A stretch of DNA of 64,000 bases from IMG/VR virus record IMGVR_UViG_3300043419_000898, positions 18,498-82,497 of that record. The stretch is one strand, 5' to 3'. This DNA is from a virus. Below are positions 44,410-64,000 of this stretch, one piece after another (position 1 is the first letter of the stretch; the number at the start of each line of letters is the position of its first letter). Position numbers and translations under genes: made by a program. Below the pieces are notes generated by a model. The model worked only from the letters and a program-made list of their open reading frames with translations, ran no database searches and was not told the origin of the DNA.

Positions 44410-44431
44410 TTTGGTAGGTTCCCTCTTGTGA

Positions 44432-44551
44432 TTACTTGACTAGATTGCCAAGTGTAACGATAACAGCGACGATGATAGAGAAGGACAAAAGTCCACCGAT
44501 GATAAGAGCAAGGTTGATTGCTTCGGCTTTTGTTGTTTGTGGAAGTTCCAT
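44432..44551 (-). CDS. 39-aa single-TM protein
   Basis: MELPQTTKAEAINLALIIGGLLSFSIIVAVIVTLGNLVK; paralogue at 45265; not in ORF track. Confidence 0.65.
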   Translation of the reverse strand: MELPQTTKAEAINLALIIGGLLSFSIIVAVIVTLGNLVK

Positions 44552-45001
44552 GCCTCAATACTACAGCAGATTGTATACGTATGCAAGACATTTTCCAGAT
44601 ATATTTTCCTATCCTAAATGCCTTATTTGCATCAGTTTGCCTACCATGCATAGCATTTATGAAATGCCTCTGTAGGCTCAAATTTGGCGATTCTACGGAC
44701 TTTGTATACGTTATGGCATAACTTATCGATTTGACGTCAAAACGGCTCTATTTAGGCAAATCTAAGAGTCCGCCCAATGCAGGCTTTGAAGTAGCGTTAC
44801 TGACAGTCACCATTCATGGTGACGTATAGTCACATCGGACTTTACAGGAGTTAGTTGCGTAGTCAACAATTGATAAATCAACTACTTGTGGCAACTACTC
44901 AAATAACCTGCCGTAGCTGCTAGGTGTGACTATTAGTCACATGCCAGTGATAAACAAAAGCCGGATGATTTCTCATCCGGCTTGATGCAACCGTGGTAGG
45001 T

Positions 45002-45241
45002 TTACTCGGTTATGTAATCCGAGTAATTCCAAACCTTGACTTTGTAGGTTTGACCCTTGAAGTTTGTCAATTGCCAAACCTCATTGAGTCCCCAAACCTT
45101 GATAAGTTTCGCACTTATCAATTCTGGATGCATGATATCCAAGCCGAATTCACGGCTGTAGAAAATCTCGATACGAGCCTTATTAAGGCTTGCCTCACGG
45201 GTGAGGCTTTCAGCGAGTGCGATTTCTTGTGTCTTAGTCAT
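45002..45241 (-). CDS. Hypothetical cassette protein
   Basis: AGGGAACCAAAAATG. Confidence 0.65.
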   Translation of the reverse strand: MTKTQEIALAESLTREASLNKARIEIFYSREFGLDIMHPELISAKLIKVWGLNEVWQLTNFKGQTYKVKVWNYSDYITE

Positions 45242-45264
45242 TTTTGGTTCCCTATACTTTCCGA

Positions 45265-45381
45265 TTACTTTACGAGATTTCCAAGCGTTATCAGAACGCC
45301 TACGATGATTGCAAAGGATGTAAATCCGCCGACGATGAGTGCAAGGTTGATTACTTCAGCCTTAGTGGTTTGAGGTTGCAT
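45265..45381 (-). CDS. 38-aa single-TM protein, leaderless
   Basis: MQPQTTKAEVINLALIVGGFTSFAIIVGVLITLGNLVK; TTGACA...TAGTAT promoter directly upstream. Confidence 0.65.
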   Translation of the reverse strand: MQPQTTKAEVINLALIVGGFTSFAIIVGVLITLGNLVK

Positions 45382-45857
45382 GTAAAGATACTACAGCCAA
45401 GCGTTAGAGAATGTCAATAGGGTATTTGCATATTCAACAAAAATAGTTTTGCATATCCTAAAAATAGTTTGAAGGTATACAAATGCCATCATTTCCGCCT
45501 ATAAACCGATGAGCCTATAGGATTTGGATATACCGCTGTAGGCTCAAATTTGGCGATTCTAGCGGGTTTGTATACGTTATTGGATAGTTTATCGGTTTGG
45601 TTACAAAACGAGCGTATTTAGGCAAATTCGGAAGTTTGCCCGCCGCAGGCTTCGAGTCGCCGATACTGACAGTCACCATGTAAGGTGACGCACAGTCACA
45701 CCACGGTTGACAGGATAGTTGTTGCTAAATCAATAGTTGCATAATCAACTAAACGACAGACAACAGAAAAAGTCCTGCCGTACGGCTGGTAGTTGCATAA
45801 TCAACAAACGCTTGACATAAGTAAACCGGATGATTTCTCATCCGGTTTGACTATTAA

Positions 45858-46193
45858 CTAATCTTCGCCTTCGTCTTCGGTGTCTTCGTCGTCGTCTTCG
45901 TCGTCGTCTTCGGATATCCAAAGTGCATCATATGCATTTCCATACGCTTTGGCATCCATTTGCATCATTTCGTTTGCACACTCAGCAGATACCTTTAGAG
46001 TATCTGCAAGTTTACTGATGCTGATTTCAGTACCAGTAAATCCATTAGCGTCAAAAATGCGATAGATGTGAGCCGATGTATTTCTGGCATCACGTGATGC
46101 CAATTTCATAATGCCATTTCTGGTAGCAACAAAGTCACCGGAGTACAAGCGAGTCAGTGCCGAATCGGTCGGCATCGGTAGTAAGGTTCCCAT
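45858..46193 (-). CDS. Hypothetical cassette protein with acidic tail, leaderless
   Basis: TAATAT-6nt-ATGGGAACC. Confidence 0.65.
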   Translation of the reverse strand: MGTLLPMPTDSALTRLYSGDFVATRNGIMKLASRDARNTSAHIYRIFDANGFTGTEISISKLADTLKVSAECANEMMQMDAKAYGNAYDALWISEDDDEDDDEDTEDEGED

Positions 46194-46553
46194 GCATCAA
46201 TATTACCATTTTGTCACCTTGACGCAAGTAAATATATGGTACGTATACAAAAATAGTTAATGCCTCTATAGGCTCAAATTTGGCTATTCTAGACACTTAT
46301 CATGCCAGATGAGTTATGTATCGGACGGTATGCAAAACGGCTCTATTTAGGCAATGTGGAGGTTCCGCCCAATGCAGGGCTTTGGAGTAAGGTGACTGGT
46401 AGTCACCGTGTAAGGTGACCTATAGTCACGTGCTAGATAGCAGGACTACTGCTGAGTATGGCAGCCTGTAGGTAGTTGATTTTGCAACGATAGGATGGCA
46501 TAAGTAAACCGGCTGGACATCCAGCCGGTTGGAGTCTACGTAGTGGTGGTGAC

Positions 46554-46913
46554 CTACTTGGAGTAGGTCATCGTACCGTGAAAGTCTACGTACAAGTCGG
46601 TGGTGTCCATCACAACGTGAAAGCCTACCGTGATATGCTGGACGCTTTCAGTCATGTCTACCGACATGTCTATGGACTTGACATTTCCATTTGATGCACA
46701 GACGTTTACCAATTCCACAACGTCGGTGATGTCATACGACTTGTGATTTGTTATCATGCCATCCACTACAGTAGTGGATGTGTAGTAGCAGAAATTTGCC
46801 ATTTTGGCTACGTTGTGGACGCTATTTTGCGTCATCTGAAGTATTCCAGATGTGTAGGTGATGTCGCCTTGTACAGCGATGTCAGAGGCGATGATAGCAG
46901 ATAAGATTGTCAT
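46554..46913 (-). CDS. Hypothetical cassette protein
   Basis: AGGGAACCGACAAATG. Confidence 0.65.
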   Translation of the reverse strand: MTILSAIIASDIAVQGDITYTSGILQMTQNSVHNVAKMANFCYYTSTTVVDGMITNHKSYDITDVVELVNVCASNGNVKSIDMSVDMTESVQHITVGFHVVMDTTDLYVDFHGTMTYSK

Positions 46914-47183
46914 TTGTCGGTTCCCTATTAAGTCAGTGTAGGTCGTTTCCTACACCACTATGTTACCACTTTGTCTACCTATCGCAAATAAATAGTCGGA
47001 CTATTTTTGCCATTTACCAGTGATAGGCATGGTGACTATTAGTCACGTAGCAGATGGCAGGAACGGCTCACAGTATGGCAGCCTGTAGCAGTCGGTCGGT
47101 CGTTGCATAATCAACAAAGCCGTGACATAAATAAACCGGTTGGATTTCTCCAACCGGTTGTATGCCTACGTAGTGGATGTGGA

Positions 47184-47396
47184 TTAGAAATCCAAGTCTA
47201 CATCCGTTTTCGCAATTACCTTGACGGTACGACCGCTCTGGAGCGTCACGCTCCAGACTTCGGTATCACCCTTTGTACGGATGATTTTCGCATCCACCAT
47301 ATCGGTAAACGTGGCATACGTCATATTGGACGTACGTGACACAAGAATGTCCATGCGGATATCCGCTCCGGTGGTGGTGGTGGTAAATGTTGTCAT
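47184..47396 (-). CDS. Hypothetical cassette protein
   Basis: AGGGAACCAAAAATG defines the start. Confidence 0.65.
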   Translation of the reverse strand: MTTFTTTTTGADIRMDILVSRTSNMTYATFTDMVDAKIIRTKGDTEVWSVTLQSGRTVKVIAKTDVDLDF

Positions 47397-47413
47397 TTTT
47401 GGTTCCCTTTCCT

Positions 47414-47665
47414 TCAAACAAAGAATGTCATTTTGACATTTGCATTTTCACACTTGATGTGCGAAACGTTTCCTTCAACGGTGAAAACGGTTACAACGTT
47501 GGACATTGCAACCCAAGCGGTGAATTCATCCGCCGTGCTATCTTCAGATGCCGATACTACACCACGGCGGATGGTATCGAATGTGATTTCCATATCGGCA
47601 TTTGCCATGGCATGGAAGTCGCAATTGTAGCAGAAGACATTTTTGAGGTTCACGGTAGTATTCAC
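47414..47665 (-). CDS. Hypothetical cassette protein, leaderless
   Basis: GTGAATACTAC start just after TATAAT. Confidence 0.6.
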   Translation of the reverse strand: MNTTVNLKNVFCYNCDFHAMANADMEITFDTIRRGVVSASEDSTADEFTAWVAMSNVVTVFTVEGNVSHIKCENANVKMTFFV

Positions 47666-47938
47666 GACGTTATTATATCAAGAATGTCACGTTTACAAGG
47701 GCATTTCGGAGCCAAGTACAAAAAATAAACCAACTATTTTTTCACCATTTACCAGTGATAGGTATGGTGACTAAACGTCACATATTTCCTTGAAAATGCA
47801 ACTATCAGCGTTACGATTACAGGAAAGTCAGTCGTGGTGGCAGCCTGCCGTCGTCTGTTGTTTGTTGATTATGCAACGATAAGTTGACATGAAAAAACCG
47901 GCTGGATTTCCAACCGGTTGGATACGACGAAGTGGATA

Positions 47939-48124
47939 CTATCCGGTTAATCGAACCATCAACAAATCCAGCATGATGGCATATTCAAAAATGTCGCCGA
48001 TTATGATATCTGCCATGGTGGCATAGGCGTTCATTTTGACAAACCATGCATCGGCTATGAACGCTAGTGGTGTGCCGGTGGCTATGCCAGCACAGAGGTA
48101 TTTTTGGTCAATGTTCATTTTCAT
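47939..48124 (-). CDS. Small hypothetical protein
   Basis: GGAG RBS; terminator follows. Confidence 0.5.
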   Translation of the reverse strand: MKMNIDQKYLCAGIATGTPLAFIADAWFVKMNAYATMADIIIGDIFEYAIMLDLLMVRLTG

Positions 48125-48133
48125 ATACTCCAA

Positions 48134-48298
48134 TTATCCGGCATAGTGCCGGATAAGACATACTGCAAGTACTACGACGAAGCCGACCATGTATAGCACC
48201 ATACCGGCAAGTATGACAGCAAAAACAGAGGCGGCGAATGGCGACATGACACGGCTGTAGTCAACGTCGGTGGTGGTGGTGGTTTGTTTGGTTCCCAT
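48134..48298 (-). CDS. 54-aa membrane protein, leaderless
   Basis: ATGGGAACC start; MGTKQTTTTTD..FAASVFAVILAGMVLYMVGFVVVLAVCL; not in ORF track. Confidence 0.55.
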   Translation of the reverse strand: MGTKQTTTTTDVDYSRVMSPFAASVFAVILAGMVLYMVGFVVVLAVCLIRHYAG

Positions 48299-48455
48299 GC
48301 CTATCATTATACTGGATTGTCAACGTATCGCTAATTTATTTACGTAATAAATGCGAACTGTTGCAAAATCAACAAACGGCTTCTCCGACAGGTTTAGCTC
48401 GGTGAGAACTAACCTGCCATGACAGATACAAGCCGGGATTTCTCCCGGCTTATTT

Positions 48456-48728
48456 TTAGTTGATGTCTAAAACAACCGTTTTGTGGATAACACCATTACT
48501 AGTAGCATCCATTACTACCGAATCATCATTTACACAAATAACCCAAAGGTAGTGGTCAAACCGTGTGATTGTCACCGCCTCACCGGTTTTGTTGAATTTG
48601 CGTACGGCTGACGTGGCTTTAGTTTCATACAAATCAGCGAAACTAGGACGTGTACGTTCACTAGCATGATGGAAAAATTCATTTGATGCCGTCAAGGTGG
48701 TGGCTGACAAAGTTACTAATTTTTTCAT
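48456..48728 (-). CDS. Hypothetical cassette protein
   Basis: GAGGGAACCACTATG. Confidence 0.65.
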   Translation of the reverse strand: MKKLVTLSATTLTASNEFFHHASERTRPSFADLYETKATSAVRKFNKTGEAVTITRFDHYLWVICVNDDSVVMDATSNGVIHKTVVLDIN

Positions 48729-48989
48729 AGTGGTTCCCTCACCTAAATATTACCATACTTTGTCAATGTGTAACACATTTTGGAGCCGGTTATGAAAATA
48801 TAGTTTTGACCATTTACCAGTGAGAAGTTGATTATGCAACAAACGGCTTCTCCGACAGGTTCGGCTCAGTGGATGGCAGCCTGTCAAGCCGGGATGTGAC
48901 CTACAGTCACCATGCAAACATTTGTTTGCATTTTCCCAGTGATAGACACGAAAAACCGGCTAGATTTCTCTAACCGGTTGGGTTGTTAC

Positions 48990-49307
48990 TTACTTGGAAC
49001 GTGCTGGCCACGTGCCATACCGGATAACACCGGCATCGATGTACATAACACCGGTGAACGTGTCATCGGTAGTACCATCGCGGAATTCCTTGAATGCTAC
49101 GTTCATCCGAACCATTCTTTGCCCTTGCTGTGTGCCATGCACGATGCCACGTGCTACGCTACCGTCGCCTAAGATAGCGGACGCTTGACGGATGCCGAAT
49201 TGTTCGAACAGCATTTTTTCCGCTTGCTTTACAGCGATGGCATTTGCCGCGACGGAGTCGGAGGACGTGTCTACCGTGTCCCAACCGGTTGGTGTAGTGT
49301 TTTCCAT
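48990..49307 (-). CDS. MENTT-leader cassette protein
   Basis: ATGGAAAACACTAC leaderless start. Confidence 0.7.
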   Translation of the reverse strand: MENTTPTGWDTVDTSSDSVAANAIAVKQAEKMLFEQFGIRQASAILGDGSVARGIVHGTQQGQRMVRMNVAFKEFRDGTTDDTFTGVMYIDAGVIRYGTWPARSK

Positions 49308-49591
49308 ACCTAATGGTATCACCTATTGTCACCTATGCAAACTATTTATCGGATATATTTTCGGCAGTTTACCAGTGAAATTTCAAATTCATGGTGACAG
49401 ATAGTCACGGCTAGCTTCTCCGACAGGCTGCCATCCCTACTGTAAGTCCTGCCAAGCCGGGATGTGACGGATAGTCACGTGTGACTTTTGGTCACATCAA
49501 AATCGAAATGTGACTGGAAGTCACCTATCAGGCATAATGCCCAATGCAGGGGTGCTGTCACCACCCCCCCCCCCGCTGGTACCCGCTCCGA

Positions 49592-49825
49592 CTAGTCACC
49601 GTAGTGGAATTCATACAAACATTCGGAACAAATGTTCCGCTCTTCCGTACGAACAATTTCGCCGGTGTAGTCATGTTTGTGGATTTGGCACTCGTATACA
49701 TCATTGCCTAATCCGTCATTGCATTTATCGCAACCGTAGCGGGTGAAATGACGCTCTTCGGCGTTCTGCATGGTGACATTTGCACCGGACATTTCGAGCG
49801 ATTCGATGTACTCTTCCCAAGTCAT
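49592..49825 (-). CDS. Small Cys-rich (CxxC x2) cassette protein
   Basis: AGGGAACC leader; CDKC...CSEC. Confidence 0.65.
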   Translation of the reverse strand: MTWEEYIESLEMSGANVTMQNAEERHFTRYGCDKCNDGLGNDVYECQIHKHDYTGEIVRTEERNICSECLYEFHYGD

Positions 49826-50008
49826 TTTCGTGGTTCCCTTCATAGCACTTGGCTACACTAGAATAATACCATGTTGGTAGACAAAGTCAATGTGAAAAAT
49901 TACCATTGAATATGCAACAACTGGAACAGCAGGATAGATTCCTAGTTTCACAACCTGCCTATAGGTCAAGAAAAAACCGGCTGGATGGTTTCCAACCGGT
50001 TTGATGTA

Positions 50009-50242
50009 TTAGGCTCCGAAACCGAGCCTTTTTCGCCACGTTGGGGCATTTTTTGGGTCTTGACGGTACCGGAGCTCGGCACTGCAATAGTGGATTTCAT
50101 CGGTGTAGTATCCGATGTTTGGATTATCCGGTTGGAGCCGGATAACTTGCTGACAGTCGGCAATTATGTGCCGGAGCGAGTGAAGGCAATTGTGTACCAG
50201 ATTCCGCTGATACTCGGTGTGGTTCATTTGTTTGGTTCCCAT
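50009..50242 (-). CDS. Hypothetical cassette protein
   Basis: ATGGGAACC start; YY.DEIHYC..EL..R. Confidence 0.65.
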   Translation of the reverse strand: MGTKQMNHTEYQRNLVHNCLHSLRHIIADCQQVIRLQPDNPNIGYYTDEIHYCSAELRYRQDPKNAPTWRKRLGFGA

Positions 50243-50401
50243 GCATCTAATTTACCACCACTTTGTATACGTTGCAAATGTATTTTGTTGTTAGAGAATA
50301 ACTATTGAATATGCAACTACATTGAGCAGATGGCAGGACTACCGAGTGGGAGTCAAGCCTGTCACAAGACAAAAAGAAAACCGGGATTTCTCCCGGCTTG
50401 A

Positions 50402-50659
50402 TTAGTCTTCGATTTCTCTTGGTATGCATATACACGCATTGACCAATTCTCTTTCCGACATCATACGCACCACGTAATTTGACATGGTGATTTCACCGGC
50501 GTCGGCACCATCAGAGTATTGAGTCGCCTTGATGGTGATATCTCGACCCATAAACATTTCCGTACCTACGTTACGGAGCAACGCTGGTACCGTGGCAACG
50601 AATTTGCCATTGACGGTGAAGTTGTACGTACCACTGAGGTACTCTTTGGTGTTTCTCAT
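50402..50659 (-). CDS. Hypothetical cassette protein, leaderless
   Basis: TTGACA promoter then ATGAGAAACAC. Confidence 0.65.
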   Translation of the reverse strand: MRNTKEYLSGTYNFTVNGKFVATVPALLRNVGTEMFMGRDITIKATQYSDGADAGEITMSNYVVRMMSERELVNACICIPREIED

Positions 50660-51020
50660 GCCTATATCCTAGGGCATGAATTAGACTTTGTCAACACCTA
50701 TTTTGAAAATAGTTTTATAGGCATACGGTACAAATTTGCTACCACGGCTCAAATGCAACAATGCCTCTATTTGTCCAAATTTGGCGATTCTAGCCACTTA
50801 TCATGCGATATTGAGTAAAGTATCATCGAGCATCAAAAACGGCTCTATTTGGGCATTTCAGAGCGTTAGTCAAAACGTGTCTGTTGTTTGTTTGATTATT
50901 CAACTATGGCAGGGCTAGTCACCACTCAGTAAGCCTGTCGTCAGGCAAAAAGAAAAGCCGGGATTGCTCCCGGCAGCTGCCTACGATGTAGAGCTGGGAT
51001 TTCTCCCAGCTCATTTCCTA

Positions 51021-51251
51021 CTAAAGGTAAAGCGACTTTTTGGTTGGCTCCAACCATTCTTCACGGAGCATAAAGGCAGCCATTTTCAAGCTACCCAAGC
51101 TCTTTTCATCGCAATCACGGATTTGGTCCATAAGCATTTCGACAGCTTCCAGAGCAATTTCAAGCCGCTTTTCGGTGATTGTCGCATTGGCGGCGATAGA
51201 GTCGGACGATGTATCGACTGAAGTCCAGCCGTTTGGTGTAGTGTTTTCCAT
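51021..51251 (-). CDS. MENTT-leader cassette protein
   Basis: TTGACA-17-TAAGAT-6nt-ATGGAAAACACTAC. Confidence 0.7.
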   Translation of the reverse strand: MENTTPNGWTSVDTSSDSIAANATITEKRLEIALEAVEMLMDQIRDCDEKSLGSLKMAAFMLREEWLEPTKKSLYL

Positions 51252-51401
51252 GTCTATATCTTACGGCATGAAATAGAGAATGTCAACAACTATTTTACAT
51301 TTGTTTTTAGAGCTACTAGCAGCTGCCAACGGCAGGTTCGGTGGCTGGTAGTAAGTCCTGTTGTGAGGCAAAAGAAAAGCCGGGATTCCTCCCGGCTTGC
51401 A

Positions 51402-51623
51402 TTACGATTTATGAGTAGCGATTATTTTTTCTGCTATCCAATCCCAATTTATATCATCAAGCATATCCAGCAGATAATCATACTTTGGGGATTCATCCAT
51501 AAAGTAATCGTGTGCCACCGACATTGCCTCACCACCATTGAATCCGTCTCCTGAGGACTCCCATTGTGCGACAAATCCATCATAAACGGTATCTAGTACT
51601 AGTTCAGTTTCAGCGTTTATCAT
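51402..51623 (-). CDS. Hypothetical cassette protein
   Basis: AGGGAACCAAGATG; C-terminal INW..IA shared with ORFs at 57438 and 59907. Confidence 0.65.
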   Translation of the reverse strand: MINAETELVLDTVYDGFVAQWESSGDGFNGGEAMSVAHDYFMDESPKYDYLLDMLDDINWDWIAEKIIATHKS

Positions 51624-53400: not shown

Positions 53401-53450
53401 TGGTTCCCTTTCAAAGATAGAGCCGGTATTTCTACCGGCTCATTGAGTGA

Positions 53451-54472: not shown

Positions 54473-54478
54473 GTCTAT

Positions 54479-56103: not shown

Positions 56104-56196
56104 TTTTGGTTCCCTTTGTAGGCTAGGTTGCTTCCTTCCTACACCTATATATTACCACACTTTGTCACCTATGCAAGAAAATATATAAACTATTTT

Positions 56197-56822: not shown

Positions 56823-57015
56823 CTTGGTTCCCTTCCCTTTCACATCAATAATATATCGTACCTAGTAGACAATGTCAAGAAAATAGATGGACTATTTTTC
56901 CGTTGACTAATCAACTAAACGGAGAACGGCAGGAGTGACTCACAGTCACCAAGCCTGTCATAAGGCAAAAATAAAGGGGAACCGACTTGGCTCCCCTTGT
57001 GCTAAGTTGGACGCT

Positions 57016-57246
57016 CTATTCGAACGTCACGAAGCCTACCATACACGCTCCCGACGGCTTGAAGGTGAGCGTATCACCGATATTTTCGGTATAGCACCGA
57101 ACGTTAGTCAAGCCTAACTCAGCCTTGACCTTACGCATGATTTGCGACTGAGTCGCATTGTCAGCGATTTCGAACTTACCACGCTGAACCCAACTGTAGT
57201 TTGCTTCACCAGCAAACGTATCTGTCAACTCAAATCGTACTGTCAT
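57016..57246 (-). CDS. Hypothetical cassette protein
   Basis: Structured leader; E.TDTF.GEANYSWV.R. Confidence 0.7.
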   Translation of the reverse strand: MTVRFELTDTFAGEANYSWVQRGKFEIADNATQSQIMRKVKAELGLTNVRCYTENIGDTLTFKPSGACMVGFVTFE

Positions 57247-57437
57247 TTTGGTTCCCCTTGTGGATTAGGTTGATTCCTATCCACATCAATAATATACACC
57301 ATGCGGTAGACAAAGTCAAGGAAATAGGCAAACTATTTTCAGTTGATTAGTCAACTACTTTTGGCTTGATGGCAGGACTACCACTCAGTATGGCAGCCTG
57401 TAAGATGGCAAAAAAAGGAGCCTTTCGGCTCCTCCTC

Positions 57438-57701
57438 CTACCCTTCGTCTTCGTCTTCGTCTTCGATTTCGTTTGCTTCGTTTATCGCATTTGCAATTTC
57501 TTCGAAGTCTACCGCACTGATGTACGTTTCGATGATGTCATTGTAGAGCGAACCCGGTTCCACTCCAGCCGGTGCCATATCACGCACCATATCTTCCACT
57601 GCATCCGCCGATACCTTGGAATCTTCGCCGATGAATGCATCCATGATGTGGAGCGAACAATTCCACGTTTCGTAATTCGCCCAACCGTTGTAAGTGCTCA
57701 T
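57438..57701 (-). CDS. Acidic cassette protein (YNGW.N.ETW family)
   Basis: Paralogue of 59907..60176. Confidence 0.7.
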   Translation of the reverse strand: MSTYNGWANYETWNCSLHIMDAFIGEDSKVSADAVEDMVRDMAPAGVEPGSLYNDIIETYISAVDFEEIANAINEANEIEDEDEDEG

Positions 57702-57960
57702 TTTGGTTCCCTTAGTAGATTAGGTTGCTTCCTACCTACACCATAATAATAGCATAGTGGTAGACAAAGTGCAAGGTGTATTTTTAGTATTTACTTATTA
57801 GTTGTTTGTATTTGATTCAGCAACTAACTCTTACAGGATTGACCAGTAGTCAACAGTCCTGCTACACTCAACTGCTAGGTGGTTCTCCAGCTACCTAAGC
57901 ATCATAACAACTACCAACCAAGTGGGGAAGGGGCACTAGATGGTGCCCCTTTTTAGTTGT

Positions 57961-58230
57961 CTACTTGACTTCGTTGTAAACCTTGTAGACTTCACCACCG
58001 TGGTTATAGAGAAACTTACAGATGATGTGGAGATTTGTTGCACTCCACCTATCCGCACGATTCATGCTATCCATTAGGTCATTTCGTAGGACTGCATCCA
58101 AGAAACCACCCAACATCAAAATGGTGCGGTACTGCACAAAGCGTTCGAACGCTTCGATGTAGGAACCGATGCAAGCGTACTCATTACGGGTTTCTTCGCT
58201 GATGTTCAGCGGGTTAGTAGTGTTTTCCAT
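57961..58230 (-). CDS. MENTT-leader cassette protein
   Basis: ATGGAAAACACTAC; GGFL.AVL.NDL.....RAD. Confidence 0.7.
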   Translation of the reverse strand: MENTTNPLNISEETRNEYACIGSYIEAFERFVQYRTILMLGGFLDAVLRNDLMDSMNRADRWSATNLHIICKFLYNHGGEVYKVYNEVK

Positions 58231-58460
58231 ACCTAATAGTATCATAGTTGACAAAGTCTGCCAGCATCCTAGGACATTTATTTTCAGGCAGAAGTTGACA
58301 GGCTCGGAGCCTACCTATCAGTCCTGCCAATGTGACTTCTGGTCACCATGATGACTATCCGTCACATCCACACACAACAAAAAAACCTAGGCTTTCACCT
58401 AGGCTTTGCACATTGCAGGGCGTGAGTCTCCGCCCCCCCCCCTCCCCGCCGTGGAGCCTC

Positions 58461-58724
58461 CTACAGTTCAAGTACCGTGTAGGAATACTCCTCCTCATTG
58501 TCAAGCCGTACGGTGAGCGACACATCGCCGTATACGGCACCCTCAAAGAGGATTTCGTATGTCATGCCATACCGTGAAAGGTACTCGTGCACAGATGATG
58601 CCAATTCATCGTATGTGTTAGAGTCTACGGAGCCGACAACCTTGAGTGGTTGACCTTCTCCAACTTCACCGGGAACGCCTTCGAAGATTTCGATTACTAG
58701 GAATCGTGATGTAGTGTTTTCCAT
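58461..58724 (-). CDS. MENTT-leader cassette protein
   Basis: ATGGAAAACACTAC leaderless start. Confidence 0.7.
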   Translation of the reverse strand: MENTTSRFLVIEIFEGVPGEVGEGQPLKVVGSVDSNTYDELASSVHEYLSRYGMTYEILFEGAVYGDVSLTVRLDNEEEYSYTVLEL

Positions 58725-58862
58725 ACCTATATATTATCACACTTTGTCAATGTGCCAAGAACTATTTTAGTTGATTATTCACTGTACAGCGATAACAGGA
58801 TATTCAGTGAATAAGGCATCCTGTAAGGAGGTAAAAGAAAAGGAGCCTTTCGGCTCCTCCTC

Positions 58863-59126
58863 TTATCCTACGACTTCGCTGATTTGGTCAGCATAGCACC
58901 AACGCATACCGTTGCACGGTACATCTATCGGCTTGATGGTAAAGATAGCGAGCTCTTGGCTCAGGTCAACCTTATTGACCGTTTGACCATACTTGATACG
59001 CTGGTTGCCAGTGGCTTCGATTTCTACCACGACTGCACGGCTGGCTGGCTCCATGCCAAAGCAACCGCTCCACATAACGATGTCGCCGATTTTGACCATT
59101 CGGCTGATGGTAGTAGTGTTTTCCAT
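58863..59126 (-). CDS. MENTT-leader cassette protein
   Basis: ATGGAAAACACTAC leaderless start. Confidence 0.7.
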   Translation of the reverse strand: MENTTTISRMVKIGDIVMWSGCFGMEPASRAVVVEIEATGNQRIKYGQTVNKVDLSQELAIFTIKPIDVPCNGMRWCYADQISEVVG

Positions 59127-59214
59127 GCCTATATCTTACACCACTTTGTATACTATGTCAAGCGCATTTTGTTGTTTATTTTAGACAGCTCTGATTTCCT
59201 GTGATAGTTCAAAT

Positions 59215-59420
59215 AGGGAAAGAGGAGGCAGATTGCTCTGCCTCCTCTTCAGTCGGGAACCAACCGACAATCGTTTGCCGAGCTGCGATGCTCTAGGCTT
59301 ATAAAGGTTATATCGTATAGGCTCATATTTGCCAAATCTAGAGGCTAAAAGATAGGAGGCTAACTATGAGCGGATTAGCCTCCTATAGAGTCCCTACGGA
59401 AACACCACCAACCGTAGGGA
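59215..59420 (-). ncRNA. Candidate small-RNA locus: two antisense-loop hairpins, each followed by a terminator
   Basis: TCCCTACGG-TTGGTGGTGTTT-CCGTAGGGA (59391-59420) + terminator 59352-59386; GTCGG-TTGGTTC-CCGAC (59252-59268) + terminator 59220-59249. Confidence 0.5.
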
Positions 59421-59429
59421 CATTGCATA

Positions 59430-59705
59430 CTAGCGTTTGGCTAGTAAGTCTGCGTACCCGACAATCATCGTGTCGATGTACGGGTCATTGCAGATTTCAT
59501 CAACAATGACATCGTCGGTGTTCTCTTGTACAGCGACTCCGAACCAGTGGCGAAGTTCGCTGATTTGTACAGCGGTAAGGTCTTCGACTGCTGTATTTAC
59601 CAAGTCGATACCCAACTCATTCTTGATACCTTCAAGGTGAGTTTCCGTCAATGTTCCGTGCATCTGGAAGTTGATGCTAACGCTTCCCGTGAGTGTAAAC
59701 TCCAT
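59430..59705 (-). CDS. Hypothetical cassette protein
   Basis: Leader carries both GGGAACC and GGAAAAACACT. Confidence 0.65.
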   Translation of the reverse strand: MEFTLTGSVSINFQMHGTLTETHLEGIKNELGIDLVNTAVEDLTAVQISELRHWFGVAVQENTDDVIVDEICNDPYIDTMIVGYADLLAKR

Positions 59706-59906
59706 AGTGTTTTTCCGGTTCCCTATCTGTAGGCTAGGCTTGTTCCTTCCTACACAACTAATATACCCTATACGGTAGACAATGTCAAGAAAATAGACAA
59801 ACTATTTTTAGTTGCATAGTCAACAATCTACAACGGCTGACAGGTGAGACTAGTAGTCACTAAGCCTGTAGCAAGCCAAAAAAAGGAGCCTTTCGGCTCC
59901 TATCCA

Positions 59907-60176
59907 CTACCCTTCCTCTCCTTCCTCTTCGTCCTTCTCCCGGTCTTCGTTGATGTGCTGTACCACCTCATGCCAATTCACGGAGGCGATGTGCTGATTT
60001 ACGAGCCATTGAGCGTACTCGCTTTCAGAGGTGCCTATCCACTCCGCTACCAATTCCTCCGCCGTCTCCCGCTCCATGTCGGCTTTGGCTTCGCTTGCCA
60101 CCTCAATTAGAGCATCGCCAAAGGCGAGCATAACGTGCCAAGTGTCCCAGTTCGTCCATCCGTTGTATCCACTCAT
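59907..60176 (-). CDS. Acidic cassette protein (YNGW.N..TW family)
   Basis: Structured leader; paralogue of 57438..57701. Confidence 0.7.
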   Translation of the reverse strand: MSGYNGWTNWDTWHVMLAFGDALIEVASEAKADMERETAEELVAEWIGTSESEYAQWLVNQHIASVNWHEVVQHINEDREKDEEEGEEG

Positions 60177-60379
60177 TGTCGGTTCCCTCAGTAGGCTAGG
60201 CTTGCTTCCTTCCTACATCATTAATATACATCATAGGTTGACAATGTGCAAGCGAATTGCCAAAAATAAATGAAGAATGTTTGTTGACAAATCAACAAGC
60301 TGGAACGGCTTTACAGGCTTAGAAGGTAAGCAGCTCTCCTGCCATCAAGCAAAAGAAAAGGAGCCTTTCGGCTCCATCT

Positions 60380-60592
60380 CTACTCCTTGTTGAAGTCCTT
60401 CGCTACTTCACTCCAGAGAGCGTCGTGTTTGGTAATGAACTTGTAGTATTCATCCCGTAGCAACCGGATGAGCTCGGTTTTGTCTACCTTTTCATCGTAC
60501 TCTACGTCATTCAAGACACGTGCAACGTTGAATGCGTGCTTTACGGCGATGTCCGCTTTGCGGGCTTCATACTTCTCTGTAGTGTTTTCCAT
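60380..60592 (-). CDS. MENTT-leader cassette protein
   Basis: ATGGAAAACACTAC leaderless start. Confidence 0.7.
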   Translation of the reverse strand: MENTTEKYEARKADIAVKHAFNVARVLNDVEYDEKVDKTELIRLLRDEYYKFITKHDALWSEVAKDFNKE

Positions 60593-60635
60593 GTCTATAT
60601 CTTACCTTTACTTTGTCAATGTGTCAAGTCTTTTT

Positions 60636-60890
60636 TCAACTATTTTGAAAATAAGTCTCATAAGTGTCTTTGTGACCCGTTGCCTTTTCATACAAGTCAT
60701 CCGACCGCTTTGTGTAGCGGTTCCATGTGGCAACAAGAGCGTCAAGCATCTCATCCCGTTGGATTTCCTTGTTTACGGACGCTCTGCACAGCAAGAGGTA
60801 CATTTCGCCTACGGCATCCACAGCGATGTTTTCACGCTCTGCTGTGTACTCTGCCATTGTCAACGGTTGGGTTTGTGTAGTGTTTTCCAT
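60636..60890 (-). CDS. MENTT-leader cassette protein
   Basis: ATGGAAAACACTAC leaderless start. Confidence 0.7.
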   Translation of the reverse strand: MENTTQTQPLTMAEYTAERENIAVDAVGEMYLLLCRASVNKEIQRDEMLDALVATWNRYTKRSDDLYEKATGHKDTYETYFQNS

Positions 60891-61060
60891 GTCTATATCT
60901 TACAGTACTTTGTATACCATGTCAAGAAGTTTTTCAAGTATTTTCAAAGCACTTTTAGCAGGAGTTGCTACCAGCATACTAACCTGCCATCAAGCAACCA
61001 AGAGAGCCGGGACGCTGAAGACATCCCGGCTCTCTCTATCACCGCACCACCGGTGACTTC

Positions 61061-61399
61061 CTATATCTTGAAAGCCATTGAAAGTTCCATGCATTTCCGG
61101 CTTGACTCATTGAGTTCAACGTTTCCGTTGAAGTGTGCCGGTTGGCTCTTGGTGATAGTCCATTGCTGGAGTCTCCCATTTGCCTTGCTCTCAGCCTCTA
61201 CGGTTACCGTACGACCGTAATTCGACTCTACGTGACCGTATGCGATGTGTCCGTTTTCGAAGGCGTATCGGCTCGCATATCCCACCATGTCAACATGCCA
61301 CGCTACATCAACATCCATGATGTCGATGATTTGAGGCGTCGGGTACTCGCTCGTGGTGAGCATGAAGACAACTTTCGTTGTTAGTGTAGTGTTTTCCAT
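61061..61399 (-). CDS. MENTT-leader cassette protein
   Basis: ATGGAAAACACTAC leaderless start. Confidence 0.7.
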   Translation of the reverse strand: MENTTLTTKVVFMLTTSEYPTPQIIDIMDVDVAWHVDMVGYASRYAFENGHIAYGHVESNYGRTVTVEAESKANGRLQQWTITKSQPAHFNGNVELNESSRKCMELSMAFKI

Positions 61400-61567
61400 G
61401 TCTATATCTTACAGCACATTGTCAACGTTGTCAAGAAAATAGTTAGTTGATTAGTCAAGTAGATATCTTGCAGATATCTTTGCACAGCTGCCAGAAGTTT
61501 TACAGGCTCAGTAGGTAGTAGCCAAGCCTGTAGCCAGCAACAAAAAAGGAGCCTTTCGGCTCCCTTC

Positions 61568-61903
61568 TCAGAATGACCAGTCGTAGTAGTAGTCCCTACT
61601 GCCGAAGCGAACGATGCGGAAGTTCGTTCCCTTGACCTTCCATTTGCCATCCTTCCGGAAGGTGACTACCACCTTGTGTCCGTTTGGATTTGGCTCGACT
61701 ACCCAGCTCTGGTGCCCGAAGTCAACATTCTCCGCTGCCTTGACGCTATCCCGTTGAAGCGTGACAGTCTTACCAGACTTCGAAACTTCGACTACCGTGT
61801 AGACTTCACGGTCTGTGTAACAGTACTCCGTTGCACCATCGCCGACCTCTGGTGTCTTGCATCCGACACGCTCTACCAACCGATTGATTAGACTTCCTTG
61901 CAT
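61568..61903 (-). CDS. Hypothetical cassette protein
   Basis: GAGGGAACCAATATG; P.VG.GAT....DR..YTV..V...G.R.YYYD.SF. Confidence 0.7.
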   Translation of the reverse strand: MQGSLINRLVERVGCKTPEVGDGATEYCYTDREVYTVVEVSKSGKTVTLQRDSVKAAENVDFGHQSWVVEPNPNGHKVVVTFRKDGKWKVKGTNFRIVRFGSRDYYYDWSF

Positions 61904-62139
61904 ATTGGTTCCCTCTTCCTTACACAACTAATATATCCTACTTTGTCAACGGTGTCAAGAAAATAGTTGAAGTATTTTCAGCCGACGGATTTCACAGGAG
62001 TAGACGGGATGTGACTTTCCGTCACCTGACTGGTGACTATCCGTCACATGAAAGGCAAAAAGAAAACCACACAACCGTTAGGCTACGTGGTTTGCACAAT
62101 GCAGGTATGCGGACTTCGCACCCCCCCTCAGCCGGACGC

Positions 62140-62388
62140 CTACACCCCTTCGGTGTAAGCATCACATTCGACAAGGATTTTGTCGATGATGTATGCGGCT
62201 TGGAAGACATCGACGCTATGGTCGCTATCCGCTTCCAGTTCTGCGATGCAAGGTCCACCCTCAAGGTGGTTAGCAGAACATGCGTTGTGCCCTTCACAGC
62301 AAGAGTAGAACATGTACTCTGGTACTTGCTCATAGATGTGGAAACGGATGTACTCAGCGGTGCCGTAGGTAACTTGTGTAGTGTTCAT
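62140..62388 (-). CDS. Hypothetical cassette protein, leaderless
   Basis: ATGAACACTAC start after promoter. Confidence 0.65.
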   Translation of the reverse strand: MNTTQVTYGTAEYIRFHIYEQVPEYMFYSCCEGHNACSANHLEGGPCIAELEADSDHSVDVFQAAYIIDKILVECDAYTEGV

Positions 62389-62569
62389 GCCTATATATTA
62401 CAGCACTTTGTCAACGTTGTCAAGTAGTTTTTTGTTGTTTGTTTATTATTCTTACAACCAAGTACTGGAGAAGTATTACAGGATAGATGCTTAGGTATCT
62501 GACCTGTAATCATGGGTAAAAAGATGCCTTTCGGCATCTGTAAGACAAAAGGAGCCTTTCGGCTCCTCC

Positions 62570-63046
62570 TTACTCAAACGCTGGTGTCTTGTACAGCGTG
62601 TTGATTCGCTGCCACCAGTCTAGGACTCGGTACGTCCACCACTGAGGGTCACAGATAACCTTGAGGTCATCCGGCTCGTTGGCACTGAAGTTGATTTGAG
62701 CCTTGCGAGCGAGTAGGCTACCTTCCTCCAGCTGACTACCCCATACGGTGTCGTAGAACGCCTTACGGAGGCTTTCCTCCGAGTAGTTGACGTCTACCAG
62801 CATCTGGCTTGCCACGGAGTAATCGGTGACACCGTGCTCCTTTTCAAGGGCGTCCACTGCCGTGTTGAACAACTTCTGTCCTAACTTGTGCAAGTCGAAC
62901 AAGATGTCTTTGTTGGTTGCACCGTCGATGAACAACCCATTGAGTGCGAGATAACTCAGCATCTCAAAACAGTCGCTTTCGAAGGCGGCAAGCTCTGGAT
63001 TTTCCATAGCCCAGCGGATACGTGCGTGTTTTTCTTCGTTCGTCAT
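62570..63046 (-). CDS. Hypothetical protein
   Basis: AGGGGAACT RBS. Confidence 0.65.
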   Translation of the reverse strand: MTNEEKHARIRWAMENPELAAFESDCFEMLSYLALNGLFIDGATNKDILFDLHKLGQKLFNTAVDALEKEHGVTDYSVASQMLVDVNYSEESLRKAFYDTVWGSQLEEGSLLARKAQINFSANEPDDLKVICDPQWWTYRVLDWWQRINTLYKTPAFE

Positions 63047-63047
63047 T

Positions 63048-63338
63048 CTAGTTCCCCTCTCCTACAATCAGAAGCCCTATGGCTTCACCCTTCACCCAGC
63101 CACCCTCTGGTACGTCAACAACGATTTTGTTGTCGTAAATGATGAACTGGACATCGTCCACGCTATCGCAATCGTGCAATAGCAGATTGTTGAATTCCCA
63201 GACTTCGTAGAATTCATCGGCATACTTTGTAGCGGTGCCATTCAGACTAGCACGGTCACGGATTACTAGACTCTTGCCCTCAGTCTTGAGGTGTCGCTCA
63301 ACTCGCTTCAGATACTCGGTCAGTTCGTATTTATACAT
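63048..63338 (-). CDS. Hypothetical cassette protein
   Basis: AGGGAACCACGATG. Confidence 0.65.
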   Translation of the reverse strand: MYKYELTEYLKRVERHLKTEGKSLVIRDRASLNGTATKYADEFYEVWEFNNLLLHDCDSVDDVQFIIYDNKIVVDVPEGGWVKGEAIGLLIVGEGN

Positions 63339-63398
63339 CGTGGTTCCCTTCCTACATCAATACTATACACTATACATGATACTTTGTCAAGTACTATT

Positions 63399-63629
63399 TT
63401 AACTATTTTCAAGCACACGGAACATGATTTCTCCGCCCCATCCGTCATCGAAGACAATGGTCAAGTCGTCTTCGTCTGGCTCACAAACGATGTTCTCAGC
63501 GTTGCCACCAATAAGGTTGACCATGTAGAACTTGGCAAGGCGTGTCAACCGTGCGGCATCCATGCCTTCAGTGCGAGAGGTAACTACCTCTGTGTCGATG
63601 TCCGTTCCCGATATCTCAACTTGTGTCAT
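63399..63629 (-). CDS. Hypothetical cassette protein
   Basis: AGGGAACCAAAGATG. Confidence 0.65.
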   Translation of the reverse strand: MTQVEISGTDIDTEVVTSRTEGMDAARLTRLAKFYMVNLIGGNAENIVCEPDEDDLTIVFDDGWGGEIMFRVLENS

Positions 63630-63685
63630 CTTTGGTTCCCTTCCTACACCACTATGTTACAACCTATCCCGTACTTTGTCAACAC

Positions 63686-63952
63686 CTATTTTACAATAAA
63701 TGTGACTTCGATAAGTTGTGGCACCGTCATCTCCCAGAGCATCCTTCCCTTGACGGTATATACCCCATCCTTGAGGGTGATACCGTCGAACTGGTACCCC
63801 TTTATGCTCGATGTACGGAGCAAGCTACGAACGCCGTAGACGTTCACAAAAGAATTAATGTCGATAAGGCTCTGAGCCGTTGACGTCTTGAAGTTGACGA
63901 CTTTGTAACGACTCTGGTCTCTTGTTAGGTCGTCTAGTATCTTTGCACTCAT
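63686..63952 (-). CDS. Hypothetical cassette protein
   Basis: AGGGGAACCGACATG. Confidence 0.65.
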   Translation of the reverse strand: MSAKILDDLTRDQSRYKVVNFKTSTAQSLIDINSFVNVYGVRSLLRTSSIKGYQFDGITLKDGVYTVKGRMLWEMTVPQLIEVTFIVK

Positions 63953-64000
63953 GTCGGTTCCCCTTGTGTAGACTCAGGGGGGGAAAGGTTGCGTCAATCC

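Follow-up and report, generated by a model that had tools for sequence, protein, structure and literature searches.

The DNA stretch analysed here (the window, 64,000 nt; coordinates prefixed with w are positions in it) comes from an uncultured freshwater tailed phage. Its minus strand carries an array of single-gene early cassettes at w44406-64000, in each of which a promoter and a standard start precede a small ORF that is closed by a standard terminator. The array was delimited from ORF lists and from counts of promoter-like sites (64, vs 34.6 expected) and terminator-like sites (50, vs 16.5 expected). The right end of the phage's record (G000) falls inside the array. About 35 unrelated small early genes in the array carry one of two standard start sequences, and sigma70-type promoters precede most of these starts. 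Outside the array, GGAG/GAGG-type ribosome sites are found at many long ORFs, in agreement with the original prediction of ordinary Shine-Dalgarno sequences on structural genes. The array could be compared with that of one readable relative (G001), which is about 80% identical to G000, continues about 4.1 kb beyond the end of our record, and shares the tags and hairpin loops of G000. The arrays of the two genomes are mosaic, and cassettes are swapped in metagenome contigs. A segment at w60986-60626 equals the region of hairpin 2, described below, in its conservation between G000 and G001.

The first standard start is marked by the heptamer GGGAACC, which occurs 31 times on both strands of the window against 4.44 expected, a count reached in none of 100 shuffles. 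On the minus strand, w44417-63962 holds 25 such tags, comprising 19 AGGGAACC, three GGGGAACC (w54840, w57250 and w63956) and three ATGGGAACC (w46185, w48290 and w50234), a tally that bears out the earlier estimate of about 22 upstream tags plus three inside the start. The tag-to-ATG gap is 3 nt in 21 of the 49 sites pooled from G000 and G001, and 3-5 nt in 32. The constancy of the heptamer proves nothing, because it was the selection criterion, and the positions flanking it vary among the 49 sites. Tags lie upstream of ATG at w45246-45252, w47401-47407 and w48732-48738, with the ATG 7 nt downstream at w44417-44423 and 1 nt downstream at w53402-53408. They follow a 5′ hairpin at w46919-46925, w52103-52109, w54840-54846 (GGGGAACC), w56108-56114, w57250-57256 (GGGGAACC), w57705-57711 and w60181-60187, and stand in short leaders at w51627-51633 and w61907-61913. 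Within the start itself, as ATGGGAACC, they occupy w46185-46191 (with a promoter immediately upstream), w48290-48296 and w50234-50240. Further copies are found at w52662-52668 (GGAAGGAAGGGAACC), w53678-53684 (GTCGGAAGGGAACCAAG), w56826-56832 (GGGAAGGGAACC), w63342-63348 and w63634-63640 (both GTAGGAAGGGAACC), and at w49832-49838, where an upstream in-frame ATG is an alternative start. The record's last cassette bears the tag AAGGGGAACCGAC (w63953-63965), while the leader at w59717-59723 combines both tag types in tandem, GGGAACC being followed by GGAAAAACACT and then ATG.

The second standard start, ATGGAAAACACTAC, is present in ten copies, all on the minus strand and on unrelated ORFs, where each is the start of, or lies in frame within, an ORF of 70-112 aa. 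The promoter scan placed a TTGACA-like -35 box and a TAnnnT -10 box ending 6 nt upstream of the ATG at eight of the ten, namely w51238-51251, w54459-54472, w55251-55264, w58711-58724, w59113-59126, w60579-60592, w60877-60890 and w61386-61399. The other two, at w49294-49307 (encoding MENTT) and w58217-58230, have weaker promoters. The description of these ten starts as leaderless fits the promoter geometry of the eight, and we infer from this geometry that ATGGAAAACACTAC messages would be leaderless. Both the GGGAACC and the ATGGAAAACACTAC start tags are highly enriched, and their placement is precise.

Tags of this kind could in principle be sites at which proteins bind or cut, read by a host CsrA-like protein recognising A(N)GGA or by a phage factor resembling RegB or RegA, with the hairpin RNAs described below being unrelated or acting as competitors. 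In phage T4, RegB cuts early ribosome sites and RegA is a translational repressor. Both AGGGA and AUGGA match ANGGA, and several GGA triplets occur in the leaders that have a 5′ hairpin. Early messages of T4 are under established protein control (review PMC3014915), which serves as a precedent. We nevertheless regard this explanation as improbable, since ATGGGAACC does not match ANGGA, and a 5-nt protein site leaves unexplained both the invariant 7- and 14-nt tags and the RNA complements of 11-16 nt. Family searches for CsrA and Hfq gave no match in G000 or G001, which also counts against it. Those for RegA and RegB gave no match in the two genomes either, but show little because the same searches matched no control genome.

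Complements of both tags are found in hairpins on the transcribed (minus) strand. In hairpin 1 (w53814-53834), a 7-bp stem encloses the 7-nt loop UUGGUUC. This hairpin begins at the stop codon of ORF w53993-53829, is followed by a standard terminator (w53787-53812; terminator scan and fold), and is identical in G001. Its UUGGUUCCC complements GGGAACCAA, and its cofold gain for the 25 GGGAACC starts is -9.4 kcal/mol, compared with -0.8 for 64 control starts. The array's sense strand contains TTGGTTCCC twice, against 0.054 expected (P = 0.0014), and GGTTCCC three times (P = 0.03).

Hairpins 3 and 2 lie in a conserved non-coding stretch, w59430-59215. Hairpin 3 (w59391-59420), in the 3′ UTR of gene w59705-59430, folds into a 10-bp stem and a 12-nt loop, UUGGUGGUGUUU, whose predicted target is AAACACUAC in the promoter-fused starts, one of the pairs being G-U. 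G001 keeps GUGGUGUUU and has a compensatory change in the stem. The cofold gain of hairpin 3 is -4.1 kcal/mol vs -0.6 for controls, while its 9-mer GTRGTGTTT is not significant alone on the array sense strand (P = 0.27). Downstream of the hairpin lie terminator 1 (w59352-59386), whose predicted fold shows a compensatory change in G001, and a possible weak promoter read from the sequence (w59307-59335; TTGGCA, 17 nt, TATAAC), which the promoter scan missed because the last -10 position is not T. The two differences between G000 and G001 within this promoter both fall in its spacer.

This promoter may drive a candidate ~85-nt small RNA (w59215-59300) in which a small 5′ hairpin precedes hairpin 2 and terminator 2, with a predicted fold of -41.9 kcal/mol (z -5.6). 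Identity with G001 over w59347-59222 is 118 of 126 positions (93.7%), vs 81.6% for the block (P = 9e-5), and terminator 2 (w59221-59248) has exchanged GCAG/CUGC for GUAG/CUAC in compensatory fashion. Hairpin 2 (w59252-59268; GUCGG UUGGUUC CCGAC), which contains the anti-tag UUGGUUCCC and is identical in G001, has a cofold gain of -9.0 kcal/mol with GGGAACC starts vs -0.8 for controls. Its minimum-energy fold adopts another register with 8 bp and a 3-nt loop (-9.0 kcal/mol), and the form originally predicted, a 5-bp stem with a 7-nt loop, reaches -6.5 kcal/mol, so the anti-tag is predicted to be largely paired. The positions given earlier for the three hairpins are correct for the minus strand, and hairpins 1 and 3 fold as described. 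The common open anti-tag loop claimed for hairpins 1 and 2 holds for hairpin 1, but is predicted to be mostly paired in hairpin 2.

A fourth element had been proposed in the terminator at w56974-56998, whose 3′ arm does complement the tag AAGGGGAACCGAC (w63965-63953) exactly over 13 nt. This anti-tag is paired inside the predicted stem, its cofold gain is -2.7 kcal/mol vs -1.7 for controls, and G001 has a different terminator in its place. We rejected it as a regulator; it shows that inverted tag copies can arise in the array without being kept. The same terminator, an address-like arm with an exact inverted copy that is absent from G001, favours a second explanation, whereby the starts would be an inherited promoter-plus-ribosome-site module copied and shuffled among cassettes, and the hairpins would be by-products of inverted duplication in an array prone to recombination, serving solely as 3′-end hairpins or terminators, with no action in trans. 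Promoters, the ATAGRY stretch after the -10 box and terminators are likewise standardised, and the mosaic arrays of G000 and G001 and the cassette replacement seen in metagenome contigs also agree with it. An upstream hairpin was found, by a loose criterion, at 13 of 25 script-detected terminators, so a hairpin before a terminator is in itself not unusual.

The strongest support for an antisense reading comes from just outside this record, in a sequence unit of G001. Beyond the position at which our record ends, G001 has a promoter-to-terminator unit for a putative RNA of about 80 nt, in the order TTGACA, 17 nt, TATACT, a hairpin whose loop is C/U-rich, and a terminator. Its two loops complement GGAAGGGAACC and GGAAAACACTACTAAA exactly; loop 1 contains GGUUCCCUUCC, and the terminator loop UUUAGUAGUGUUUU, together with the next two stem bases, complements 16 nt. 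The predicted fold (-29.7 kcal/mol, z -4.35) leaves both loops open. Across 32,988 G000 windows, the ten promoter-fused starts are ten of the twelve best partners of loop 2. Among the tags, that at w56826-56832 is the best predicted partner of loop 1. This loop matches G-runs and further purine tracts as well, with 189 sites reaching -16 kcal/mol or lower, of which 74 lie on the opposite strand. Mean cofold gains of the G001 RNA are -8.0 with the ten leaderless starts and -7.0 with the 25 GGGAACC starts, compared with -1.5 (sd 2.4) with 64 control starts, and the predicted pairing of the antisense RNAs with tagged starts is, on these models, specific.

Contigs of four out of four metagenome runs, from four studies, cover the G001-type unit, which is almost unchanged amid divergent or replaced flanks. 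One contig differs from the G001 unit at exactly 10 of 120 nt, two of these differences falling within the 80-nt RNA body and eight in the spacer and pre-start stretch, while the two promoter hexamers are unchanged (P = 0.003). The tie of this RNA to G000 is one 888-nt contig, from a sample that is possibly the source of this genome. Inherited start modules leave unexplained why a separate unit, with its own promoter and terminator, should present both complements in open loops and stay nearly invariant in all four runs amid changing flanks. They likewise do not explain the raised conservation of w59347-59222, or the presence of UGGUUCCC in three different hairpin contexts in G001. We consider such modules, with by-product hairpins, a rather unlikely explanation.

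It could also be argued that the anti-tags act in cis, the anti-tag of a read-through transcript folding onto the next tag, or the 3′ UTR of a message folding back on the 5′ end of that message, such that own-promoter transcripts alone would be translated. Every anti-tag does lie immediately upstream of a terminator and the next promoter, and in gene w59705-59430 the leader contains a near-copy of the leaderless tag and the 3′ UTR contains hairpin 3. Yet the cassette downstream of hairpin 2 has a leaderless start and no GGGAACC tag, the leader of the hairpin 1 mRNA itself is without GGGAACC, and the free-standing RNA of G001, having a terminator of its own, would have to act in trans. Action in cis appears very improbable.

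A small family of antisense RNAs pairing with the standardised start regions is, in our judgement, a moderately probable explanation, and a few such RNAs could probably control the whole tagged gene set at once. The original prediction of a small-RNA switch is partly supported, by the tags, by the sense-strand hairpins with anti-tags (1 and 2 identical in G001, GUGGUGUUU of hairpin 3 kept), and by the free-standing G001 RNA, which complements both tags and is conserved in four of four runs. It is weakened by the stem-bound anti-tag at w56974, the mostly paired loop of hairpin 2 and the insignificance of the hairpin 3 match alone. Relatives that kept the addresses without the antisense loops had been named as evidence against it, and G001, the sole relative examined, has both.

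The tags, their complementarity, the predicted folds and their conservation are observed features; RNA production, pairing in the cell, and the direction and timing of any effect are what we infer from them. The region would be the early part of the phage, with several dozen one-gene cassettes read by the host's sigma70 polymerase. Their messages would begin either with a purine-rich leader, whose final GGGAACC stands about 3-5 nt upstream of the ATG, or with the first base of the ATG itself, in the sequence AUGGAAAACACUAC. The lineage would make small structured RNAs carrying complements of these starts, namely the free-standing two-loop RNA of ~80 nt and, inside the window, the conserved non-coding stretch w59430-59215 with hairpins 3 and 2, and hairpin 1 at a 3′ end. 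These RNAs may base-pair to the ribosome-binding region or, in promoter-fused messages, to the 5′ end. Such pairing would reduce translation of the tagged early genes collectively and probably make their messages shorter-lived. Having an early-type promoter, the G001 RNA would be produced at the same time as its targets, and a simple late shut-off by this RNA needs further assumptions.

Such early phage parts are known elsewhere as the host-takeover region. The shuffling invoked by the inherited-module explanation, for its part, is comparable to that of the PeSL cassettes, which are copied and shuffled in T4-type phages.

Head, portal and terminase genes identified by PHROG matches show that the window comes from a tailed phage, and these matches indicate no particular phage type. 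In the phage collection searched, the terminase is closest to those of Bradyrhizobium and Acetobacter phages, and with ~41% identity at best to any searched phage record it does not indicate a T4-like phage. The sequence occurs mostly in freshwater metagenomes (24 runs from 13 studies). None of these runs is catalogued as RNA, and one is labelled as RNA by guess alone. From approximately position 44400 to its end, the window carries a long row of small ORFs on the minus strand, which forms an array of cassettes. Both promoter-like sites (64 vs 34.6 expected) and terminator-like sites (50 vs 16.5 expected) are enriched in the array and mostly lie on the minus strand, and many of the terminators have in common one shared sequence with a GAAA loop. 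The array as DNA matched nothing in the phage collection, and ten of its ORFs had no match in Pfam. A 250-codon open frame on the plus strand (positions 60468-61220), antisense to three minus-strand cassettes and without a Pfam match, is probably not a gene. Outside the array, a tRNA-Met gene with anticodon CAT lies on the plus strand at positions 39434-39507, and an Rfam abiF RNA match (38 bits against a threshold of 37) lies on the minus strand of the structural gene region at positions 14910-14945.

The one near-complete relative in IMG/VR, G001 (83,860 bp), was reached through a 14-mer from the start regions of the cassettes (ATGGAAAACACTAC) and the capsid protein, which is 96% identical. 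Its array is ~80% identical to the present one, with a mosaic pattern of matches. G001 extends ~4.1 kb past the point where the present record ends (G001 79,724-83,860), and this extra part holds further cassettes, an AAA/RecA-like ATPase gene and a candidate regulatory RNA with two seeds. The window, bases 18498-82497 of a record of 82,497 bp, extends to the end of that record. Since the present record ends inside the array that G001 continues, its CheckV estimate of “100% complete” is too generous.

The original prediction held that the cassette genes begin with one of two standard sequences, and this is borne out by the counts. The heptamer GGGAACC is found 31 times in the window against 4.44 expected, a number reached by none of 100 shuffles. 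The 25 copies on the minus strand of the array comprise 19 of the form AGGGAACC, three GGGGAACC and three ATGGGAACC. Among 49 sites pooled from the present genome and G001, the distance from tag to ATG is 3 nt in 21 and 3-5 nt in 32; GGGAACC mostly has A/G-A before it and A-A after it, and the positions further upstream are variable. The second sequence, ATGGAAAACACTAC, is found in ten copies, exclusively on the minus strand, each of which opens an ORF of 70-112 aa whose product differs from the others after MENTT. On its minus strand G001 has 25 copies of GGGAACC (24 within its array); it also has ten copies of ATGGAAAACACTAC. Most long ORFs outside the array have ordinary GGAG/GAGG sites instead.

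These tags occur in three layouts. The promoter is either fused to ATGGAAAACACTAC, with the -10 element ending 6 nt before the ATG in eight of the ten cases, or followed by a few bases and GGGAACC, or followed by a 5′ hairpin of the form GUAGG..CCUAC and then GGGAACC. Variants of the promoter-fused start are ATGGGAACC, ATGGGAAATACACTAC, ATGAGAAACACC and ATGAACACTAC. That the ATGGAAAACACTAC messages would be leaderless is a sound inference from this promoter geometry. The sequence GGGGAACC may resemble the top of helix 45 of 16S rRNA, and the leaderless tag may resemble the old “downstream box”. Both tag types stand in tandem (AGGGAACC, GGAAAAACACT, ATG; positions 59706-59723, minus strand) in the leader of the gene at 59705-59430.

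The same prediction listed three hairpins and a terminator that carry complements of the tags. The hairpin coordinates are correct when read on the minus strand, and the first and third hairpins fold as described. Hairpin 1 (positions 53814-53834) begins at a stop codon, displays UUGGUUC in its loop and is followed by a standard terminator; hairpin 3 (positions 59391-59420) has a 12-nt loop, UUGGUGGUGUUU, and is likewise followed by a terminator. Hairpin 2 (positions 59252-59268), however, prefers another register with a 3-nt loop (-9.0 kcal/mol) to the predicted structure (-6.5 kcal/mol). UUCCC is formed by the loop of hairpin 1 together with its closing pair. It is also present in hairpin 2, where exposure of the UCCC motif is doubtful in the predicted fold. 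The terminators after hairpins 2 and 3 were missed by our own terminator script because stem extension consumed the T run, and its count of 25, with 13 preceded by an upstream hairpin, should be read as rough figures.

On the sense strand of the array, TTGGTTCCC is found twice against 0.054 expected (P = 0.0014) and GGTTCCC three times (P = 0.03), while the 9-mer of hairpin 3 has no significance alone (P = 0.27). With the 25 GGGAACC starts, the gain in cofold energy is -9.4 kcal/mol for hairpin 1 and -9.0 kcal/mol for hairpin 2, compared with -0.8 kcal/mol for 64 control starts. Hairpin 3 gains -4.1 kcal/mol with the ten promoter-fused starts against -0.6 kcal/mol with controls. The modelled gains of the hairpins thus show specificity for tagged starts. 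The message of the tandem-tag gene at 59705-59430 ends in hairpin 3, and its 5′ and 3′ ends could therefore pair. The loop of hairpin 3 (GGUGGUG) is also partly complementary to ACC codon runs, encoding five threonines, shortly after the start of two cassette genes on the minus strand (positions 47360-47396 and 48250-48290).

The terminator at positions 56974-56998 (minus strand), which had been listed with the hairpins, does not appear to be a regulator. It contains an exact 13-nt complement of the tag at 63965-63953, but within its stem and opposite an address-like arm. A different terminator occupies the corresponding place in G001, and the cofold gain is -2.7 against -1.7 kcal/mol for controls. 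We read this element as an accident of inverted duplication. It shows that such accidents occur, and in this respect it favours an explanation in which the tags are inherited modules of promoter and ribosome site and the anti-tags are accidental inverted copies of them. We regard that explanation as unlikely.

Hairpin 2 may belong to an RNA of its own. A possible weak promoter (TTGGCA, 17 nt, TATAAC; positions 59335-59307) lies upstream, with both differences between the present genome and G001 in its spacer, and would give rise to an RNA of ~85 nt from positions 59300-59215. A 25-codon ORF across this RNA was rejected, as neither its start codon nor its stop codon is retained in G001. Rfam searches of the array and of L189, the G001 stretch that holds the dual-seed RNA, gave nothing at gathering score; the sub-threshold match at hairpin 2 was to BjrC68 (26.3 vs 39 bits).

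Hairpins 1 and 2 are unchanged between the two genomes, and the neighbouring structures show paired substitutions. In G001, the stem of hairpin 3 has changed from CCCUACGG/CCGUAGGG to CCCUAUGG/CCAUAGGG, terminator 1 from GAGGC/GCCUC to GAUGC/GCAUC and terminator 2 from GCAG/CUGC to GUAG/CUAC, all compensatory changes. The loop of hairpin 3 retains GUGGUGUUU in G001 with both flanks of it changed. The segment comprising the spacer, hairpin 2 and terminator 2 (positions 59347-59222) is identical at 118 of 126 positions, compared with 81.6% over the 4.2-kb aligned block (P = 9e-5). A gene segment at 60986-60626 is equally conserved, and the conservation around hairpin 2 is therefore supportive only.

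Further relatives were sought in several ways. When viral contigs were scanned with segments of the G001 RNA or with the 5′ portion of the hairpin 2 RNA, G001 alone was matched, and a scan with the 14-mer ATGGAAAACACTAC gave mostly single chance matches in addition to G001. Four GC-rich contigs that matched the hairpin 2 17-mer besides G001 proved by alignment to be unrelated chance matches. The protein encoded at 59705-59430 has 14 listed relatives (74-98% identity), one on an 87-kb contig, and a viral-contig scan with their alignment returned G001 alone. A metagenome scan with the G001 ATPase yielded a 1.1-kb fragment and a contig with 99.7% identity to G001, neither of which was informative. 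Of two other genomes considered, G002 represents only the structural half of a relative, and G004 was ruled out as an unrelated phage of 67% GC.

The dual-seed RNA of G001 supports a shared antisense control more strongly than do the three hairpins originally listed. Its unit lies on the array strand, ~0.8 kb into the extra part of G001 (L189 639-525, minus strand), and has a promoter of the form TTGACA, 17 nt, TATACT. The first hairpin has a 6-bp stem (CCUAGG/CCUAGG) around AUGGUUCCCUUCCCCUUCCCAUUCCCAG; the second has a stem GGUGGACGG/CCGUCCACC around UUUAGUAGUGUUUU and is followed by five U. Loop 1 includes the exact complement of GGAAGGGAACC; GGAAAACACUACUAAA is complemented exactly by loop 2 plus the first two bases of its stem. 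Both loops are open in the predicted fold (-29.7 kcal/mol, z -4.35), in which the four UCCC motifs of loop 1 are unpaired. When 30-nt windows on both strands of the present genome (n = 32,988) were scanned for partners, all ten promoter-fused starts were among the 12 best windows for loop 2. Loop 1 is less selective: the tags score high, as do G-runs and purine tracts, and 189 sites, 115 of them on the minus strand, reach -16 kcal/mol or lower. The whole RNA gains -8.0 kcal/mol with leaderless and -7.0 kcal/mol with GGGAACC starts, against -1.5 kcal/mol with control starts. A 10-codon frame within the unit (MVPFPFPFPA; L189 595-564, minus strand) was considered and set aside as probably untranslated; it is without a ribosome site, and an ATG upstream of it (13 codons) is changed in a metagenome variant. 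An element found in five copies on the minus strand (positions 62127, 58442, 55485, 52408 and 49574), which starts with 7-11 G and continues as (T)GC..N..CCTGCAWTG(W)GC, ranks with the best predicted partners of the C-rich loop; this may be a mere effect of composition. Three of the five directly precede a terminator, and similar copies are present in G001.

Folding in cis on read-through transcripts would be another use for the hairpins. It fits neither hairpin 2 nor an RNA that stands alone and has a terminator of its own, and we consider it very improbable.

Conservation of the dual-seed unit was examined with contigs from four runs of four studies, placed on L189:1-1300; one run derives from a sample that is possibly the source of the present genome. 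The unit is covered by contigs in all four runs. Over L189 521-640, the contig from run X20 has exactly ten differences, of which two are in the 3′ part of loop 1, three between the -10 element and the start, and five in the promoter spacer; there is none in the -35 and -10 elements, the stems, the GGUUCCCUUCCCCUUCCC tract, loop 2 or the U run. Only two of the ten thus fall within 80 of the 120 positions (P = 0.003). The same variants are found in the other three runs. In the 130 nt downstream of the unit, by contrast, 24 differences and 5 indels were listed for run X1, and joints in the metagenome contigs show that neighbouring cassettes have been replaced. The unit is nearly invariant while its flanks diverge or are replaced, which makes it a conserved island in a shuffled region. 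It is very likely that the phage of the window also carries the dual-seed RNA, on the part lost from the assembly. Runs X20 and X23 are labelled with a named but coded organism and not as metagenomes, and about a quarter of the array words are present in them; the culture or sample of that organism may be a pointer to the host.

Base pairing of the anti-tag RNAs with the start regions is the most economical reading. Pairing at GGGAACC would cover the ribosome-binding site, and pairing at GGAAAACACUAC would cover bases 3-14 of a message that needs a free 5′ AUG for the ribosome; both would be expected to lower initiation. As these RNAs have early-type promoters or are situated at the ends of early messages, their synthesis would coincide with that of their targets. 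The outcome could be an upper limit on the yield of early proteins, or a shut-off that sets in late, with the accumulation of stable hairpin RNAs; both the direction and the timing are inferred. The original prediction of a shared barcode is partly supported, and in our reading the terminator at 56974-56998 has no regulatory role. The furthest-reaching reading, to which we give somewhat less than an even chance, is that cassettes with either standard start, one of them a leaderless 5′ end, make up the entire early gene set and are controlled by an antisense family of one dual-seed RNA and several 3′-end hairpins, which would act on new genes as soon as these are inserted behind a standard start. 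Control by RNA would then extend across the regulon and would reach leaderless messages directly.

A protein that recognises the tags would be a rival account of the shared starts. CsrA sites have A(N)GGA motifs, which usually lie in loops and often number two per target, and this motif is present in both AGGGA and AUGGA. Searches of the present genome and G001 gave no match to the CsrA, Hfq, RegA or RegB families, though those for RegA and RegB matched no control genome either. We judge a protein agent to be improbable. A second, transcriptional layer of common control may exist. Between a terminator and the promoter that follows it, the minus strand (positions 44833-62047) carries 23 palindromes with the pattern GTGAC-N4-6-GTCAC, most of them with N5 and some in runs of 3-5 (52362-52310 and 49524-49478); they resemble operators for a dimeric DNA-binding protein.

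Little is known of small RNAs through which lytic phages act on their own genes, and the examples known to us govern single operons. If antisense control of the tags is real, a single family of short RNAs would determine the level or timing of ~35 unrelated early genes through a shared start, and the phage would exemplify RNA control of leaderless messages in nature. No RNA seed directed at the 5′ ends of leaderless messages is known to us. Searches of the accessible literature found no description of such a system. The design of a standard address with a matching RNA would be of interest to builders of gene circuits. Since the promoters are of the ordinary sigma70 type, the system can be tested in a laboratory strain.

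The nearest bacterial parallels are small RNAs of Gram-positive bacteria, LhrC1-5 of Listeria, RNAIII, RsaE and SprD of S. aureus and FsrA of B. subtilis, in which C-rich UCCC motifs in unpaired regions or loops pair with G-rich ribosome-binding sites and thereby block initiation; LhrC exists in multiple copies, each molecule carrying three UCCC sites (PMC4132741). Similarly, UCCC is exposed in the predicted folds of loop 1 of the G001 RNA (four motifs) and of hairpin 1, and the present RNAs hold exact 9-11 nt complements to (GGAA)GGGAACC(AA), with cofold gains between -7 and -9.4 kcal/mol where controls gain -0.8 to -1.5 kcal/mol. Unlike those RNAs, the present ones are encoded by a phage whose own early genes are the apparent targets, these targets share one exact tag instead of a loose G-rich site, and the 5′ end of promoter-fused (leaderless) messages is matched by another seed. 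The resemblance is also without sequence homology, as no Rfam family was matched at gathering score.

Among phages, the c4 antisense RNA of P1 and P7 is described as having loops complementary to the region around the ribosome-binding site of the phage's own mRNA and as blocking its translation (PMC12197685). The predicted loops here are likewise complementary to ribosome-binding regions of the phage's own mRNAs. Here, too, the Rfam search gave no match. The CI RNA of P4 is a case similar to c4. The c4 RNA serves immunity in temperate phages, acts on one operon (icd-ant) and is excised from the operon under its control, whereas ~35 separate genes with their own promoters would be addressed here.

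In organisation, the array resembles the PeSL (promoter-early stem-loop) cassettes of T4-type phages, in which small non-essential genes in variable regions are bordered by strong sigma70-like promoters and terminator stem-loops and shuffled by recombination between these borders (PMC2839356). Sigma70-like promoters and terminator stem-loops also border the present cassettes, and shuffling is evident in the mosaic matches to G001 and in the replacements in metagenome contigs. In the abstract of that study, PeSLs are modules of promoter and terminator, with no mention of standard translation starts or a matching antisense RNA (PMC2839356). None of the UCCC-type sRNAs, c4 and PeSL is known to join a matching RNA to an exact address shared by dozens of genes with promoters of their own. 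The T4 proteins RegB and RegA control a whole class of early messages through a shared feature of the ribosome-binding region. In the phage described here, a class of early messages would likewise be addressed through its ribosome-binding regions, with candidate RNAs in place of the proteins of T4.
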